Assembly (NCBI GenBank): GCA_014584395.1
Contig: JACTMY010000006.1
Span: forward strand, 59,800-123,799
Origin: Planctomycetota bacterium
GTDB lineage: Bacteria > Planctomycetota > Planctomycetia > Gemmatales > HRBIN36
Direction of reading: 5' to 3'
DNA: 64,000 nt
The first letter of the stretch is position 1. Each line of letters starts with the position of its first letter. The translations under genes and the position numbers were made by a program. Below are positions 14,011 to 30,954 of the stretch, piece after piece. The notes below the pieces were generated by a model. The model saw only the letters and a program-made list of their open reading frames with translations. It ran no database searches and was not told where the DNA came from.

Positions 14011-14035
14011 GAAGTTGCTTGGAGCGTTGGGTCAG

Positions 14036-14108
14036 TACCCCCGGCAGGATTCGAACCTGCGACCCTCGGTTTAGGAAACCGATGCTCTATCCCCTGAGCT
14101 ACGGGGGC
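14036..14108 (-). tRNA. tRNA-Arg (anticodon CCT)
   Basis: The reverse complement folds as a cloverleaf: GCCCCCG TA GCTC AGGGGATA GAGC A TCGGT TTCCTAA ACCGA GGGTC GCAGG TTCGAAT CCTGC CGGGGGT A. That is 73 nt with a GTTCGAATC T-loop, anticodon CCT and a G1-U72 wobble. CCA is not encoded. Confidence 0.9.
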
Positions 14109-26919: not shown

Positions 26920-27936
26920 TCAACCTTCCATGAAGTGGGGATCGAAGCCATGACGTGCAGGCTCGAAATCCATGCGGCGAACAAACGCGGCTGCTTCCTG
27001 CGCCAAGAAGTCCCGATCCATTTCTGGATCTTCCGCTTTCACGATCCAGGGACCTTCATACCCTGTTCGATGCAAGGCGCGAACGAGCGATGACCAATCC
27101 ACCGAGCCATGCCCCGGCGCCCGGCAGGAACGACCGCGCCGCGGGTCCCCAGCCGTGAGACGCGAACCCAGGATCCCGGTTCGACCGTTAAGATTCAGGG
27201 CCGCATCTTGCCAATAAATCATGAAGATGCGGTCGGGGAAAGCCTGGATGAATTCGACCGGATCGACTCCTTGCCAATGAAGCTGCCCAGGGTCCACGGC
27301 AAAGCCAATGGTTTCACTACCCTGGAACAGATTCAGCATCGCTTCCGCGGAATACAGATCGAAGGCCATTTGACCTGGCTGCACCTCGAAAGCCAGGCGC
27401 AGGTTCAATGCTTGGAATTCCTGCACGATGGGCAGCCAGCGTTCCACCCATTCTTGACATTTCGTCGTCCACCATGCTCTTGGCACGGGCGGGTAGTCAA
27501 ACAGGGCTTGCCCATGGGGTGAGCCGCCACAAGTCGCAACCAGGTTCACGCCCAAGCTATGCGCCACGCGAGCCGTCGCCGCCAGCTCCTCGCTGGCACG
27601 GTCGCGCACGCCATGAGCCTGACCGTCTCCCCAAACGTAATCCGGTAATCCCGCCTGATGCCTTTCATCGGCATCCTCGCCGACAACCTGGCCCACCATG
27701 CGATTGCATATCGCTGCCAGGCGAATTTCATGTTTCTCCAACAGCGACACCAAACGCTGCGGATAGTCTGGCTCGCTCAAGGCCCTTTGAATGGCCAGAT
27801 GCTCTCCCTGGCAATCCAGTTCGATCGCCGCATAGCCCCATTCAGCCGCTTTTTGGACAAACGCTTCGAGTCCGCGGTCCGTCCACGAGCGGCTGCTCAA
27901 TCCAATCAGGCGTGGCATATCCCTTTCCTCCGCCAA
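26920..27936 (-). CDS. Sugar phosphate isomerase/epimerase (xylose isomerase-like TIM barrel)
   Basis: 338 aa with AP endonuclease 2/Xyl-isomerase-like barrel features (GYAAIELDCQ..., LRLAFEVQPGQ). The start may instead be the second Met at 27918. Confidence 0.65.
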   Translation of the reverse strand: MAEERDMPRLIGLSSRSWTDRGLEAFVQKAAEWGYAAIELDCQGEHLAIQRALSEPDYPQRLVSLLEKHEIRLAAICNRMVGQVVGEDADERHQAGLPDYVWGDGQAHGVRDRASEELAATARVAHSLGVNLVATCGGSPHGQALFDYPPVPRAWWTTKCQEWVERWLPIVQEFQALNLRLAFEVQPGQMAFDLYSAEAMLNLFQGSETIGFAVDPGQLHWQGVDPVEFIQAFPDRIFMIYWQDAALNLNGRTGILGSRLTAGDPRRGRSCRAPGHGSVDWSSLVRALHRTGYEGPWIVKAEDPEMDRDFLAQEAAAFVRRMDFEPARHGFDPHFMEG

Positions 27937-28002: not shown

Positions 28003-29379
28003 TCAGTTGCCGGGCGGCGAGCTGGGCGGCGCGCCGCCTTCTCCCGGCGTTCCACCCCCAGAGACCGGCGGTTCATTGCCTCCGGAGCCGCCGGCTGGGG
28101 CAGGTGCATTCCCTCCCGAGATGGGCAAGGTGTTGGGCTCCTGGCTCATGGGCGAGGAAAATGGCACCATCACGTCTTCATCCTCTAGATAAACTTCATC
28201 CAGGTCCGTGTCGTCCACCAACTTGCGCATGAGGAAGTAAACGACCGTGCCCGCCGACCAGAAGAAGCTGTAGGCGAAGCCAAGCACGAACAAGAAGATG
28301 ATGTGCAGCCAGATGGCCACGATGCCTGCGGCGAACTTTTGGAACCATTCGGGCTTCAGGTCCTTGTGATCGCCGCCGAGCAGCGTGCACCACTCATAGG
28401 ACGTGGGGGCGTAGATGAACAGCGTGCTCAACGGGTCGCCGCGCCAGCCATGCCAGGGAATCAACTCCACGCCCCACTTGGCGAGATAGACCATGAAGGA
28501 CGTCATGAAGACCATGAAAAAGACGGCGATGAAGCCGTACAGGATCGCCAGGAAGGCGTAGAGCAGATACTGCCAAGGTCGCTGATAGACGTAAGCATAG
28601 CAGCGGCTCAAGGCGTCGAAGCTATCCGTGCCCTCGGCGCTGACTGTGGCATACATCAAAGGCCAGCCGATGTAGCCGATGACCAACAGAGCGATGATCA
28701 AGCCGGCAATGAGGGGGAGAAACCAGAGAATGGCGACGAGCCAATCGCCCACCAGGGGAATGTGCAGCAACAGGCCGCCCAACACCATCAAAATGCCCAG
28801 CCCGGCGATGCCGAGCAGCGGTATCAGGGGCGCGGTGAAAAACGACCAGAATTTTTGGCGGGCGAAGCGAATGCCGTCGGACATGGAGAGTTTTTCGCGG
28901 CGGGCCACCTGCACGGCGGCAATGCGCGTGATCGCTCCGCCAAAGATGGACCACACCGCCAAGGAATAAAACAAGCCGAACAGGGCATACCACCACTTGC
29001 CCTCGCGCGGGGAAGAGCGAATGACGTCGATGACCGGACCAAAGAATTTCTGGAAGGGTTCGACCTGAGCGGGAGGCTGCTGCCCCTCGCCGCCAAACCA
29101 GAACGTCCCGGAGAACAGATGGCCTTCGCTAGGATGGGTGACCACGATGAAGGGGTTTTTGCCGCGATTGACGTAGCCCGGCCAGGTGCTGTAGGCGCTG
29201 TCGCTTTGACCAAAGACCAACCCTAAAATCCACCAGCCCAGCCAAAGGACCACGACGGCGGCCGTGGCCAAGATCAACTTGGAAGGGTCCAAGGCGATTT
29301 GAAAGGCGCGAAAGACCTCGGTCCATGGCCGTCGTGTTGGACTGGTCGACTCTCGCATTTCCCCACGTTCATCAGACAT
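28003..29379 (-). CDS. Polytopic membrane protein with acidic then Gly/Pro-rich C-terminal tail (hypothetical)
   Basis: ATG at 29379 is preceded by AAGGAG. At least seven hydrophobic helices are visible. The C-terminus reads DDTDLDEVYLEDEDV...GGNAPAPAGGSGGNEPPVSGGGTPGEGGAPPSSPPGN. I recognised no family. Confidence 0.6.
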   Translation of the reverse strand: MSDERGEMRESTSPTRRPWTEVFRAFQIALDPSKLILATAAVVVLWLGWWILGLVFGQSDSAYSTWPGYVNRGKNPFIVVTHPSEGHLFSGTFWFGGEGQQPPAQVEPFQKFFGPVIDVIRSSPREGKWWYALFGLFYSLAVWSIFGGAITRIAAVQVARREKLSMSDGIRFARQKFWSFFTAPLIPLLGIAGLGILMVLGGLLLHIPLVGDWLVAILWFLPLIAGLIIALLVIGYIGWPLMYATVSAEGTDSFDALSRCYAYVYQRPWQYLLYAFLAILYGFIAVFFMVFMTSFMVYLAKWGVELIPWHGWRGDPLSTLFIYAPTSYEWCTLLGGDHKDLKPEWFQKFAAGIVAIWLHIIFLFVLGFAYSFFWSAGTVVYFLMRKLVDDTDLDEVYLEDEDVMVPFSSPMSQEPNTLPISGGNAPAPAGGSGGNEPPVSGGGTPGEGGAPPSSPPGN

Positions 29380-29795
29380 TCCCGACTCCTTGATGAGGCT
29401 TCTAGGCGCGTCGAGCACCCTCAAGAAATGGTTCGCAAAGTTGGTCGTATTATAGTTGCCTCCCCTGCTCTTTCAATCAAGACGAAGGCAAGTCGACGGA
29501 AATTCACCCTGCCGGGTCGGCCCCTGGTTCCGGCCCTGTCGCAAAAATCTTCATCAGGAAACCGGTAAAGCACTTAGGGCGACTTGACAAGCTTGCCAGA
29601 GTTTACTACTCAAGTAGGTGAAATCGACGCGGCTGTACTTGGAGTGCGGCTCGAAAAGAATGGATGACCCCTGGCTCTGATCCGGCAACGCGGCTCGAAT
29701 GACGCGGAATGGCTCCCATGGGATGCGACTCGGCCAGCTTTGCGAAACCGGAGCTTTTCGTCAGGATTCAAGTGATTTGATTTAAGGAATCCCTT

Positions 29796-30218
29796 ATGCT
29801 CCTACGGAAAACCATTCAAGAGTTGCAGGACCTGCTCGCCTGCTTGTCGCCCAGCACCGCCGGGGAGACGCTTTCTCGAGAGCGCCTGAGCGAGCCTCGG
29901 GCTGGTCGTCGCAAAAAAGAGGGCGATAACAACGAAGATGACATCGAAGACGAGGATGAGGACGACGACGAAGAGGATGAGGATGATGATTTAGAGGAAG
30001 ATGAAGAGTTCGAAGACGATCTCGAGGATGATGACCTCGATGATTTAGATGATGATGATTTCGACGACGATGACTTCGACGACTTGGACGATGACGACCT
30101 CGATGAGGACCTCGAAGACGATTTTGAAGATGAATTCGAGGACGACGATGATTTAGAGGATGACGAAGAGGAAGAAGAAGAGGAAGAGGAAGAGGAGAAT
30201 TTTGACGACGAAGAATAA
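29796..30218 (+). CDS. Poly-acidic (Asp/Glu-rich) low-complexity protein, 140 aa
   Basis: ATG with AAGGAA upstream. The first 45 aa or so are ordinary sequence. From there to the C-terminus almost every residue is D or E, with only L/F/I/N spacers (e.g. DDLDDLDDDDFDDDDFDDLDDDDLDEDLEDDFEDEFEDDDD, and a run of 14 E). A strong intrinsic terminator follows. Confidence 0.65.
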   Translation: MLLRKTIQELQDLLACLSPSTAGETLSRERLSEPRAGRRKKEGDNNEDDIEDEDEDDDEEDEDDDLEEDEEFEDDLEDDDLDDLDDDDFDDDDFDDLDDDDLDEDLEDDFEDEFEDDDDLEDDEEEEEEEEEEENFDDEE

Positions 30219-30256
30219 TGCTGTTCGAAATGGCTTTAGGACGATTTGGCATCCCA

Positions 30257-30290
30257 GGGGTTGTGATGAATTTCACAACCCTTATATTTT
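30257..30290 (+). terminator. Rho-independent terminator of the acidic-protein gene
   Basis: GGGGTTGTGA-tgaatt-TCACAACCC stem-loop followed by TTATATTTT. Confidence 0.7.
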
Positions 30291-30489
30291 CCCTCAATTA
30301 AAGCCACCTTGAGAAATGAGGATTGCATCGATAGATGGGATTACGGAGAAATAAGACGCCGCCCGCAGGAATGGAATTCCTTGAAGCGGCAAGAGTAAGG
30401 GGTATAATTGCGTTATCTTTCGTAATCGTGCAGGTTTCGCGCGGTGTCATACCTATCCATTCCGCCATCATTTGCCGAGGTGAGCAGTC

Positions 30490-30954
30490 ATGGCCGGCAA
30501 AGGCAATTTGCAAGACCCGTCATGTGCTTCGTCTACCACTCCCTATCCGGGTGCTGCGTTCATGGACATGAACCAAATCGACTTTGAAATCGAATTCTAT
30601 CAGGGCATTCTGAAGCGCCACCCGGAATACGTTGACGCCCTGCGGATCCTGGGCAATAACCTCACCATCAAAGGACGGTTCGCGGACGGGTTGGCGATCG
30701 ATCTGCGCCTGGTTCAGCTCCGCCCGCGTGATTTCCTGGCCCACTACAACCTGGCGTGCAGCTTTTCCTTATTGAGGCAAACCGAGCCAGCCTTGGCTGC
30801 TTTGCGGCGGGCGATTGAATTGGGGTATCGCGATTATCGCTATCTCAGCCAGGACCGCGACCTGGAAAACATCCGCCACGACCCCCGCTACCGCCAATTG
30901 CTGCTCGAATTCGAATTGCCGCTCTTGCGCAAAACCAAACATCGCCAAGCCTAG
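30490..30954 (+). CDS. TPR-repeat protein
   Basis: TPR-like helices are visible (YQGILKRHPEYVDALRILGNNL; AHYNLACSFSLLRQTEPALAALRRAIELGY). The start may instead be the Met at 30562. Confidence 0.6.
   Translation: MAGKGNLQDPSCASSTTPYPGAAFMDMNQIDFEIEFYQGILKRHPEYVDALRILGNNLTIKGRFADGLAIDLRLVQLRPRDFLAHYNLACSFSLLRQTEPALAALRRAIELGYRDYRYLSQDRDLENIRHDPRYRQLLLEFELPLLRKTKHRQA

Follow-up and report, generated by a model that had tools for sequence, protein, structure and literature searches.

The 64,000-nucleotide stretch of DNA analyzed here in full (the window), which comes from a Planctomycetota bacterium of the order Gemmatales (assembly GCA_014584395.1, contig JACTMY010000006.1, positions 59,800 to 123,799), contains a gene for a small protein of extreme acidity (hereinafter the acid gene and acid protein), positioned back to back with an operon encoding a polytopic membrane protein. 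Comparative evidence strongly supports the view that the acid gene is a real gene under purifying selection, and its product belongs to a family that is undescribed as far as family, structure and literature searches reach. We tentatively favor the proposal that the acid protein is a cytoplasmic disordered polyanion, which binds a basic partner multivalently and is tied to the neighboring membrane module. To our knowledge, it is rare for a stand-alone bacterial protein to consist of about 80% Asp/Glu across 100 residues.

The acid protein comprises 140 residues including the initiator Met (D48, E37; ~16.6 kDa), presents ~80 carboxylates and has a net charge of about -76. Its gene was first noticed in a first-pass annotation made from the sequence letters alone, which correctly recognized the 140-residue open reading frame (ORF) with a D/E tail punctuated by periodic L/F. 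The same annotation had delimited a normal head of 45 residues and a terminal run of 14 Glu; the non-acidic head in fact ends at RRK40/KKEG43, and the actual run consists of 11 Glu (124-134) followed by NFDDEE. The tail of ~100 residues is 80% D/E with ~14 L/F at intervals of 3-6 residues, and residues 44-140 consist of D47, E32, L8, F6, N3 and I1. Successive gaps between the hydrophobic residues of the tail measure 6, 4, 5, 3, 5, 5, 3, 5, 4, 4, 4 and 6, a regularity reached by 0 of 20,000 shuffles. The pure GAA/GAG tract of about 35 nucleotides, also reported in the first pass, was located within the segment encoding the Glu run, where Tandem Repeats Finder detects a period of 6. A structure predicted with AlphaFold2 (AF2) from the single window sequence contains a helix only at residues 2-17, with the remainder modeled as coil at a predicted local distance difference test score (pLDDT) of 50-63 (mean 57.9); together with the composition, this single-sequence model points weakly to an intrinsically disordered tail. 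Residues 1-17 form an amphipathic, charged segment and not a hydrophobic one, on which ground an N-terminal signal peptide was rejected.

The nature of the selection on this gene is apparent from comparison with an orthologue in the metagenome-assembled genome GCA_039809045.1, which encodes an acid protein of 139 residues (64% identical) in the same divergent position beside a membrane protein 83% identical to that of the window. In a DNA alignment the differences at codon positions 1, 2 and 3 number 7, 4 and 57 in the tail and 15, 10 and 18 in the head. From residue 66 onward 13/13 aligned hydrophobic positions of the tail stay hydrophobic, some of them by way of double synonymous changes (e.g. 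TTA to CTG); hydrophobic residues nearer the head are not conserved (M47 of the orthologue, I50 of the window). Nei-Gojobori counts gave proportions of nonsynonymous (pN) and synonymous (pS) differences of 0.149 and 0.887 for the tail, where pS is saturated and the rate ratio dN/dS not computable, and of 0.266 and 0.536 for the head (dN/dS about 0.35), with a dN/dS of about 0.09 for the whole gene. All tandem-repeat periods within the acid gene are multiples of 3, and its choice of D/E codons is that of the neighboring genes. The exact window protein was not found in the protein collection; in assemblies with an identical membrane protein the acid gene has been called, with a product of 140 residues (I50V) or 138 residues (2 Glu fewer). 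In the locus L001 (5168-5584) it is 6 nucleotides (2 Glu) shorter than in the window within the GAA/GAG tract, an in-frame polymorphism between near-identical strains, and across the family, whose members range from 102 to 140 residues, lengths vary in frame only. It is because of the third-position-dominated divergence, the retention of L/F, the in-frame-only lengths, the normal codon usage and the conserved Shine-Dalgarno motif that we consider the gene real. The first-pass claim of a genuine stand-alone gene is thereby upheld: the ORF persists in orthologues together with its head and periodic tail, with variation in tract length, the substitutions fit the sense frame and not merely the opposite strand, and the sole apparent truncation (P0124, below) is a cloning-vector junction and not a tract-length frameshift. 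An antisense ORF of 167 residues (29794-30297, minus strand) was rejected, as the antisense frames of a GAN repeat are all open by composition and the substitutions fit the sense frame only.

Orthologues were collected by synteny from 80 species-representative loci with the membrane gene, and in 73 of these the upstream flank is 1.2 kb or longer. A divergent acidic ORF was found in 7 of these 73 (L008, L010, L011, L037, L038, L063 and L068), and a metagenome motif scan (RAGRRK plus acidic codons) added L132, L152, L157 and L159, its results being mostly chance (4 true members among 81 stretches). The same divergent arrangement is seen in the Logan contig L088, where the acid gene would yield a 44-residue 'protein', P0124; this was rejected as a truncated family member, since L088 3960-4000 (Logan SRR867159) ends in the cloning-vector polylinker GGATCCTCTAGAGTCGACCTGCA with no frameshift. 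The family thus assembled has 11 distinct orthologues, all within one monophyletic Gemmatales clade, and its members share a common plan. At the N-terminus an 'ML' start opens an amphipathic helix of ~15 residues, followed by a variable linker and an invariant RRK at residues 37-40; the heads are 37-40 residues long in all members, with M1, L2, R38, R39 and K40 invariant in their alignment. The tails (64-100 residues, 77-87% D/E) proceed from a pure D/E block through 8-13 L/F/Y spaced 3-6 residues apart to another pure D/E block, 13-19 residues long, giving the proteins net charges of -51 to -81. The spacing of L/F is also non-random in the ten other members, with shuffle fractions of 0.0001 to 0.01. 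All members except L152 end in [F/L]-D-[D/E]3-6, e.g. NFDDEE, FDDDEE, FDEDED, LDDEDD and FDDEED. The head, RRK and C-terminal motif are conserved even though the membrane proteins of the other sublineages are only about 41-44% identical to that of the window.

This family is effectively invisible to standard sequence searches, as are hyper-acidic low-complexity proteins in general. The acid protein has no match in Pfam at E-values up to 10, none in NCBIfam or PADLOC, and none among PDB sequences at E-values up to 1. A word-indexed search of 5.8 billion proteins and an exhaustive phmmer search of 1.84 billion representatives each returned only P0004, and a profile of the family heads returned only the vector-junction artefact P0124. 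With tblastn, where the low-complexity filter of BLAST masks the tail, neither 50,697 phage nor 72,556 plasmid records gave a match, and a motif scan of IMG/VR produced 5 chance matches only and no family member. Likewise, literature, family and structure searches yielded no homologous family or description of the acid protein. However, orthologues 64-99% identical to it, which we know from synteny, were missed by the word-indexed and phmmer searches; the similarity-search negatives therefore say little, because even close orthologues escape them. P0004, which comes from an ENA metagenome contig of 547 nucleotides, is a protein of 121 residues with a clear signal peptide, the motif RPRAPRRP and then a D/E tail in which L/F recur with the same periodicity (DDLDEDDLDEDELEEDDLDEDD...DDDFDDDFDDDL). 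Its head is unrelated to that of the acid protein, and it looks like a secreted counterpart built to a common design.

The acid gene also has transcriptional signals of its own. Between the window and its relative L005 an island of ~85 bp is identical amid diverged intergenic DNA, and the promoter-like block within it is 100% conserved, with diverging flanks. In the more general form CTTGACAA-N10-13-TTACTA this block occurs as a single copy on the acid-gene strand, 97-188 nucleotides upstream of the ATG, in 18/18 acid-gene loci that include the region, and in 0/151 other loci scanned. It is present in all sublineages, and once in the 64-kb window, where 0 are expected by chance. From this restriction to acid-gene loci the -35 element TTGACA can be regarded as phylogenetically footprinted. 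Of the promoter TTGACA-17-TACTCA proposed in the first pass, the -35 element thus lies in the conserved block, but TACTCA matches TATAAT at only 2/6 positions and was not called in a sigma-70 scan; the conserved TTACTA sits at an unusual spacing from TTGACA. The ribosome-binding site and the terminator of the first pass are both borne out. The former is conserved in L005, with GAGGA-type motifs preceding the ML start in other sublineages. At the place of the latter L005 has a hairpin with a compensatory change (GTTGTGA/TCACAAC to GTTGTGG/CCACAAC), and 9/11 orthologues have their own GC-rich hairpin and T run just past the stop, with differing hairpin sequences. With a cis block confined to acid-gene loci, terminator hairpins in 9/11 orthologues and a compensatory change in one pair of them, the comparison of these loci indicates that the acid gene is monocistronic, forming its own transcription unit. 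Its 5' leader is not unusually structured (z = -0.41), and nothing in Rfam matched in the acid-gene region; the sole Rfam/ARAGORN match in the 64-kb window is a tRNA-Arg(CCT) at 14035-14108 on the minus strand.

The most consistent associate of the acid gene is the divergent membrane gene, to which it is adjacent in every locus with flanking sequence (the window, L001-L008, L010, L011, L037 and L038, and further L063, L068, L088, L132, L157 and L159). The co-occurrence of this pair, raised as a question in the first pass, is thus confirmed wherever it could be inspected. The membrane protein, whose acidic and then Gly/Pro-rich disordered tail had likewise been described correctly, has 600 significant homologues, and those that carry a taxonomic name are from Gemmatales or Gemmataceae (Planctomycetota). 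An AF2 model computed with 35 homologues is all-helical (pLDDT 83.5; predicted template modeling score 0.80), and hydropathy and loop charges, from which the topology was derived, suggest six transmembrane helices with both termini and a K/R-rich loop (153-177) predicted to be cytoplasmic. Its C-tail RKLVDDTDLDEVYLEDED precedes a Gly/Pro-rich stretch, and residues 404-458 have pLDDT below 50; across homologues we observed an invariant motif RKxVDDTDLDEVYLEEEE, both acidic and hydrophobic, followed by a disordered Pro/Gly-rich tail. A long acidic tail is found in no homologue, and derivation of the acid gene by fission of the tail of the membrane protein was rejected on this basis. Foldseek comparison of the model against the PDB found nothing significant (best E 0.18, choline-transporter-like matches with template modeling scores below 0.31). 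The homologue P0036 passes marginally for DUF7847 (PF25231) with 30.0 bits against a gathering threshold of 28.7 bits (E 4.1e-07), and precomputed matches to PF25231 are on record for several further homologues; the window protein itself has no match to DUF7847 at E-values up to 10, and literature searches found no description of the function of this domain. Every sublineage retains both hexamers of the membrane-gene promoter, TTGAA(A/T)-16-TATAAT. Regardless of whether the acid gene is there, an AP_endonuc_2 TIM-barrel gene lies downstream of the membrane gene in 64/71 Gemmatales loci with flank, and the two constitute a conserved two-gene module whose membrane component is without a significant fold match in the PDB.

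In a neighbor-joining tree of the membrane proteins the acid-gene loci all fall in one clade. From this one-clade distribution, and from the retention of the operon with or without the acid gene, we conclude that the acid gene is a clade-specific addition of single origin beside an older conserved operon. On its other flank the gene content is less constant. A gene for a small basic protein of the TPR_END_plus family lies downstream in the window, L005 and L152 lineages and is absent from other sublineages; the downstream gene in L010 is a different ORF, metallophosphoesterase-like by eye only, and L037 has no long ORF directly downstream. The TPR protein is a possible associate of the acid protein. 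A sigma-70-like promoter (TTGAAG-16-TATAAT, 10/12) is found upstream of the TPR gene at 30381-30408 on the plus strand, and because of this match the TPR gene may be transcribed separately from the acid gene. The wider neighborhood in the window is chromosomal in character (FeoB, an aldolase, CoA transferases, LpxK and a histidine kinase) and is devoid of nearby mobile-element genes.

Features of the acid gene and its surroundings, in coordinates of the window
Feature	Coordinates	Strand	Remarks
Hyper-acidic protein, coding sequence	29796..30218	+	from the ORF list; 140 aa including Met; stop TAA 30216-30218
Head, residues 1-40	29796..29915	+	helix 2-17, variable linker, RRK (38-40) within RAGRRK
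Polyanionic tail, residues 41-140	29916..30215	+	D/E block; periodic L/F block 66-120; 11-Glu block; C-terminal NFDDEE
Homopurine GAA/GAG tract	30165..30199	+	35 nt, from the sequence; encodes the Glu run; length-polymorphic in frame
Shine-Dalgarno-like AAGGAA	29784..29789	+	6 nt before ATG; conserved in L005
Promoter-like cis block CTTGACAA-N12-TTACTA	29583..29608	+	188 nt upstream of ATG; -35 TTGACA invariant; -10 assignment uncertain
Intrinsic terminator	30256..30293	+	11-bp stem (30256-30283), 6-nt loop, T-rich tail ATATTTTCCC
DUF7847-like polytopic membrane protein	28003..29379	-	458 aa, ~6 transmembrane helices; ATG preceded by AAGGAG; TTG alternative = 473 aa
Membrane-gene sigma-70-type promoter TTGAAA-16-TATAAT	29449..29476	-	11/12 match; back to back with the acid-gene block
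Xylose-isomerase-like TIM-barrel gene (AP_endonuc_2)	26920..27936	-	Pfam 7.8e-26; follows the membrane gene as its conserved operon partner
Small basic TPR protein (TPR_END_plus)	30490..30954	+	NCBIfam NF047558, 1.1e-18; pI about 9.2

Several side observations were made at these loci. In other Gemmatales the gene upstream of the membrane gene usually has the same orientation and encodes a secreted protein, possibly of the outer membrane; we found such a gene within the upstream 2.5 kb of 38 acid-gene-negative loci (e.g. L051 291-2069). In four loci (e.g. L070) a tandem paralogue of the membrane gene stands in its place. At ~4-5 kb downstream from where the membrane gene starts, several Gemmataceae loci (L018, L022, L025 and L041) have a gene whose product combines runs of poly-Arg with acidic segments and ends in a conserved ...FSTWNVPSWAEIIAGLYRPER motif; it is unrelated to the acid gene. 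Gemmatales-type membrane genes were also recovered from contigs labeled 'uncultured Alcaligenaceae' or 'Bacteroidales' (L015, L028, L032, L038 and L076), which are probably mislabeled bins.

Under the proposal we favor, the tail of the acid protein would be an intrinsically disordered polyanion gripping a positively charged surface by multivalent electrostatic contacts, which the Leu/Phe anchors would reinforce, as in acidic-hydrophobic tails and nucleic-acid mimics, with the N-terminal helix serving to dock or oligomerize the protein. The likeliest partner or beneficiary would be the divergent membrane module, by way either of the cytoplasmic basic N-terminal helix and loop of the membrane protein or of the target of its acidic C-tail, in which case the acid protein may act as an accessory regulator or tether of this module. 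The membrane module is the most economical partner because the adjacency has outlasted both the divergence of the membrane proteins and the turnover on the other flank. The back-to-back conserved promoters and the predicted cytoplasmic location of the termini and the K/R-rich loop also support such a link. The ~40-residue non-acidic head could additionally fill the ribosome exit tunnel before the D/E run is translated: ~30 tunnel-spanning residues counteract the destabilization of the ribosome by D/E runs (Chadani et al., 10.1101/2021.02.02.429294), and it is because heads of 37-40 residues in all members match this requirement that we suggest such a role.

Several points weigh against this proposal. 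The tunnel-length argument is drawn from E. coli and would apply to Planctomycetes by analogy; the predicted disorder, with its basis in composition and a single-sequence AF2 model, is weakly founded; and the -10 element of the proposed acid-gene promoter is poor, leaving its assignment uncertain. The clade member L009 is without the acid gene at this position, and about 90% of the Gemmatales species sampled have the membrane protein and its TIM-barrel partner without the acid gene, because of which the acid protein must be dispensable for the core function of the module. Furthermore, the adjacency could merely record the birthplace of the gene in a syntenically stable region. A more ambitious version of the proposal, which we put forward as a decidedly speculative one, is that the acid protein is the founding member of a class of stand-alone bacterial 'sticker-and-spacer' polyanions, a prokaryotic counterpart of the prothymosin/nucleoplasmin type serving as the soluble partner of the membrane module of this Gemmatales clade. 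As such it might, for example, hold a basic protein or a polyamine at the membrane, by tethering or sequestering it, and the small TPR protein might read the free [F/L]DDEE end of the acid protein.

The first pass had suggested DNA mimicry, the buffering of polycations or the chaperoning of very basic partners, all of which are conjectures. Among the alternatives, the acid protein might instead be a general nucleic-acid mimic or acidic chaperone with no specific tie to the membrane protein, its targets being nucleoid-associated proteins, RNA polymerase, ribosomal proteins or other very basic ones, as with prothymosin-alpha, the acidic regions of histone chaperones or the acidic tail of SPO1 Gp44. 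Binders of the nucleic-acid-mimic and chaperone kinds typically have aromatic and aliphatic anchors at periodic positions in their acidic runs. The composition, charge and predicted disorder of the acid protein, the long D/E-dominated low-complexity tract kept in all 11 members, and the monocistronic organization of the gene with its own promoter-like block and terminator would all suit such a function. Precedents are available in the acidic disordered regions of Npm2 and Nap1, which act as DNA mimics (PMC10987829), and in the acidic disordered region of SPO1 Gp44, which does likewise (PMC8208478). However, this alternative leaves the strict adjacency to the membrane gene over deep divergence unexplained, no basic partner is encoded nearby, and there is no homology to any known mimic; we accordingly rate it as unlikely, if worth keeping in sight.

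We consider it quite unlikely that the acid protein is a high-capacity, low-affinity buffer of cations (Ca2+, Mg2+, metals or polyamines) in the manner of calsequestrin, which might feed or buffer transport by the membrane protein. The ~80 carboxylates on a chain of 16.6 kDa speak for it, and the adjoining polytopic membrane protein has transporters as its only fold matches, all non-significant. However, a buffer needs neither conserved spaced Leu/Phe, nor a C-terminal [FL]DDEE, nor a helix-RRK head, and with a best E of 0.18 and template modeling scores below 0.31 the membrane protein is without a significant transporter match.

The TPR domains of Hop and CHIP clamp the EEVD-COOH ends of Hsp70 and Hsp90, and by this precedent the acid protein could be a client or ligand of the downstream basic TPR protein, with the TPR domain recognizing its free acidic C-terminus, [F/L]-D-D-E-E-COOH. 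The conservation of [FL]-D-[DE]3-6 at the C-terminus of most members (L152 being the exception), the adjacency of the TPR gene in three lineages, the divergent L152 included, and the basic character of the TPR protein (pI about 9.2) are consistent with this idea. We nevertheless regard it as improbable, given that the TPR gene is absent from the L010/L011 and L037-type neighborhoods and that, where it is present, a terminator stands between it and the acid gene and it has a promoter-like site of its own.

That there is no functional protein at all, the acid gene being a spurious ORF in GA-rich low-complexity DNA or a cis-acting leader of the mgtL kind, appears highly improbable. It is true that all frames of a GAN repeat, and those antisense to it, are free of stops by composition, that the protein collection does not contain the exact sequence and searches by similarity yield nothing, and that D/E runs are known as translation sensors. 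However, the divergence is dominated by third positions with Leu/Phe kept through synonymous changes; the head, RRK and C-terminal motif persist across the deep divergence of the membrane proteins (~41-44% identity); and gene callers call the ORF in other assemblies. A leader would moreover have nothing to attenuate, as a terminator comes straight after the ORF and the genes beyond it lack conservation. Finally, the reading of the protein as an anti-restriction or anti-defense DNA mimic of a mobile element, akin to Ocr or ArdA, which develops the anti-restriction suggestion of the first pass, has only the extreme acidity of the protein in its favor and is largely refuted by the chromosomal housekeeping neighbors without mobile elements, the vertical inheritance within one clade, the lack of matches to the ArdA/Ocr Pfam models or PADLOC, in the 50,697 phage and 72,556 plasmid records searched with the tail masked and, beyond chance matches, in IMG/VR, and, more weakly, by the prediction of disorder instead of a folded DNA-shaped body.

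Whichever partner it has, the acid gene shows several signs of function: it is under purifying selection, keeps to a fixed modular plan, has cis elements of its own and is strictly linked to the membrane operon. As similarity tools miss orthologues 64-99% identical to it, hyper-acidic families are likely to be under-counted. The family offers an entry point to the roles of polyanionic disordered proteins in bacteria, to that of the widespread pair of the DUF7847-like membrane protein and the TIM-barrel protein in Gemmatales, and to the handling of very long acidic tracts by the ribosome; were it only a cation or charge buffer, the result would be a modest one.

Comparison with known systems places these features in context. 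In the DDDIPF tip of SSB and the acidic C-terminal domain of Hfq, a short acidic run with a Phe/Leu anchor forms a docking or autoinhibitory motif. The tail of the acid protein resembles ~10-14 such motifs in series and ends in [FL]DDEE; however, in SSB and Hfq a single motif is appended to a folded nucleic-acid-binding domain, whereas the acid protein has motifs throughout and no such domain. Calsequestrin, which resides in the lumen of a eukaryotic organelle, has a thioredoxin-like fold and a short acidic tail. The acid protein could, like it, bind many divalent cations or polyamines through dense carboxylates, but there is no homology between the two, and cation binding leaves the periodic Leu/Phe unexplained. 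The D/E leaders of the mgtL type (10.1101/2021.02.02.429294; PMC11162784) share with the acid protein consecutive acidic residues that are hard to translate, and its ~40-residue head, matching the filling of the tunnel, is in line with the 'length principle' by which D/E runs are protected against abortive translation. Unlike these ORFs, which are very short and directly upstream of a regulated gene, the acid gene encodes 102-140 residues of a protein under selection, is followed by a terminator and has no conserved downstream gene. Ocr (T7 gp0.3) and ArdA (PMC2731889) are also very acidic, but they fold into dimers on which the carboxylates follow the course of B-DNA, and their genes reside on phages, plasmids and conjugative transposons, in contrast to the acid protein with its lack of a profile match, its predicted disordered tail and its vertically inherited chromosomal locus. 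The RNA-polymerase inhibitor Gp44 of phage SPO1 (PMC8208478) is similarly small, with a disordered acidic tail thought to be a non-specific DNA mimic in bacteria; however, it is encoded by a phage and has other N-terminal and middle parts, whereas the acid gene is chromosomal, restricted to one clade and not found in the phage and viral collections searched. Finally, prothymosin-alpha and the acidic disordered regions of Npm2 (A2) and Nap1 (C-terminal) (PMC10987829) share with the acid protein long near-pure D/E tracts, predicted disorder, high negative charge, hydrophobic and aromatic anchors in the acidic runs and a short basic cluster elsewhere in the chain. These proteins are eukaryotic and nuclear, with no detectable homology to the acid protein, which differs in being bacterial, stand-alone (102-140 residues) and linked to a membrane protein, and in its fixed helix-RRK head and strikingly regular Leu/Phe spacing. 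The closest analogues of the acid protein are thus functional and not homologous ones, namely the acidic disordered nucleic-acid mimics and the acidic-hydrophobic docking tails.

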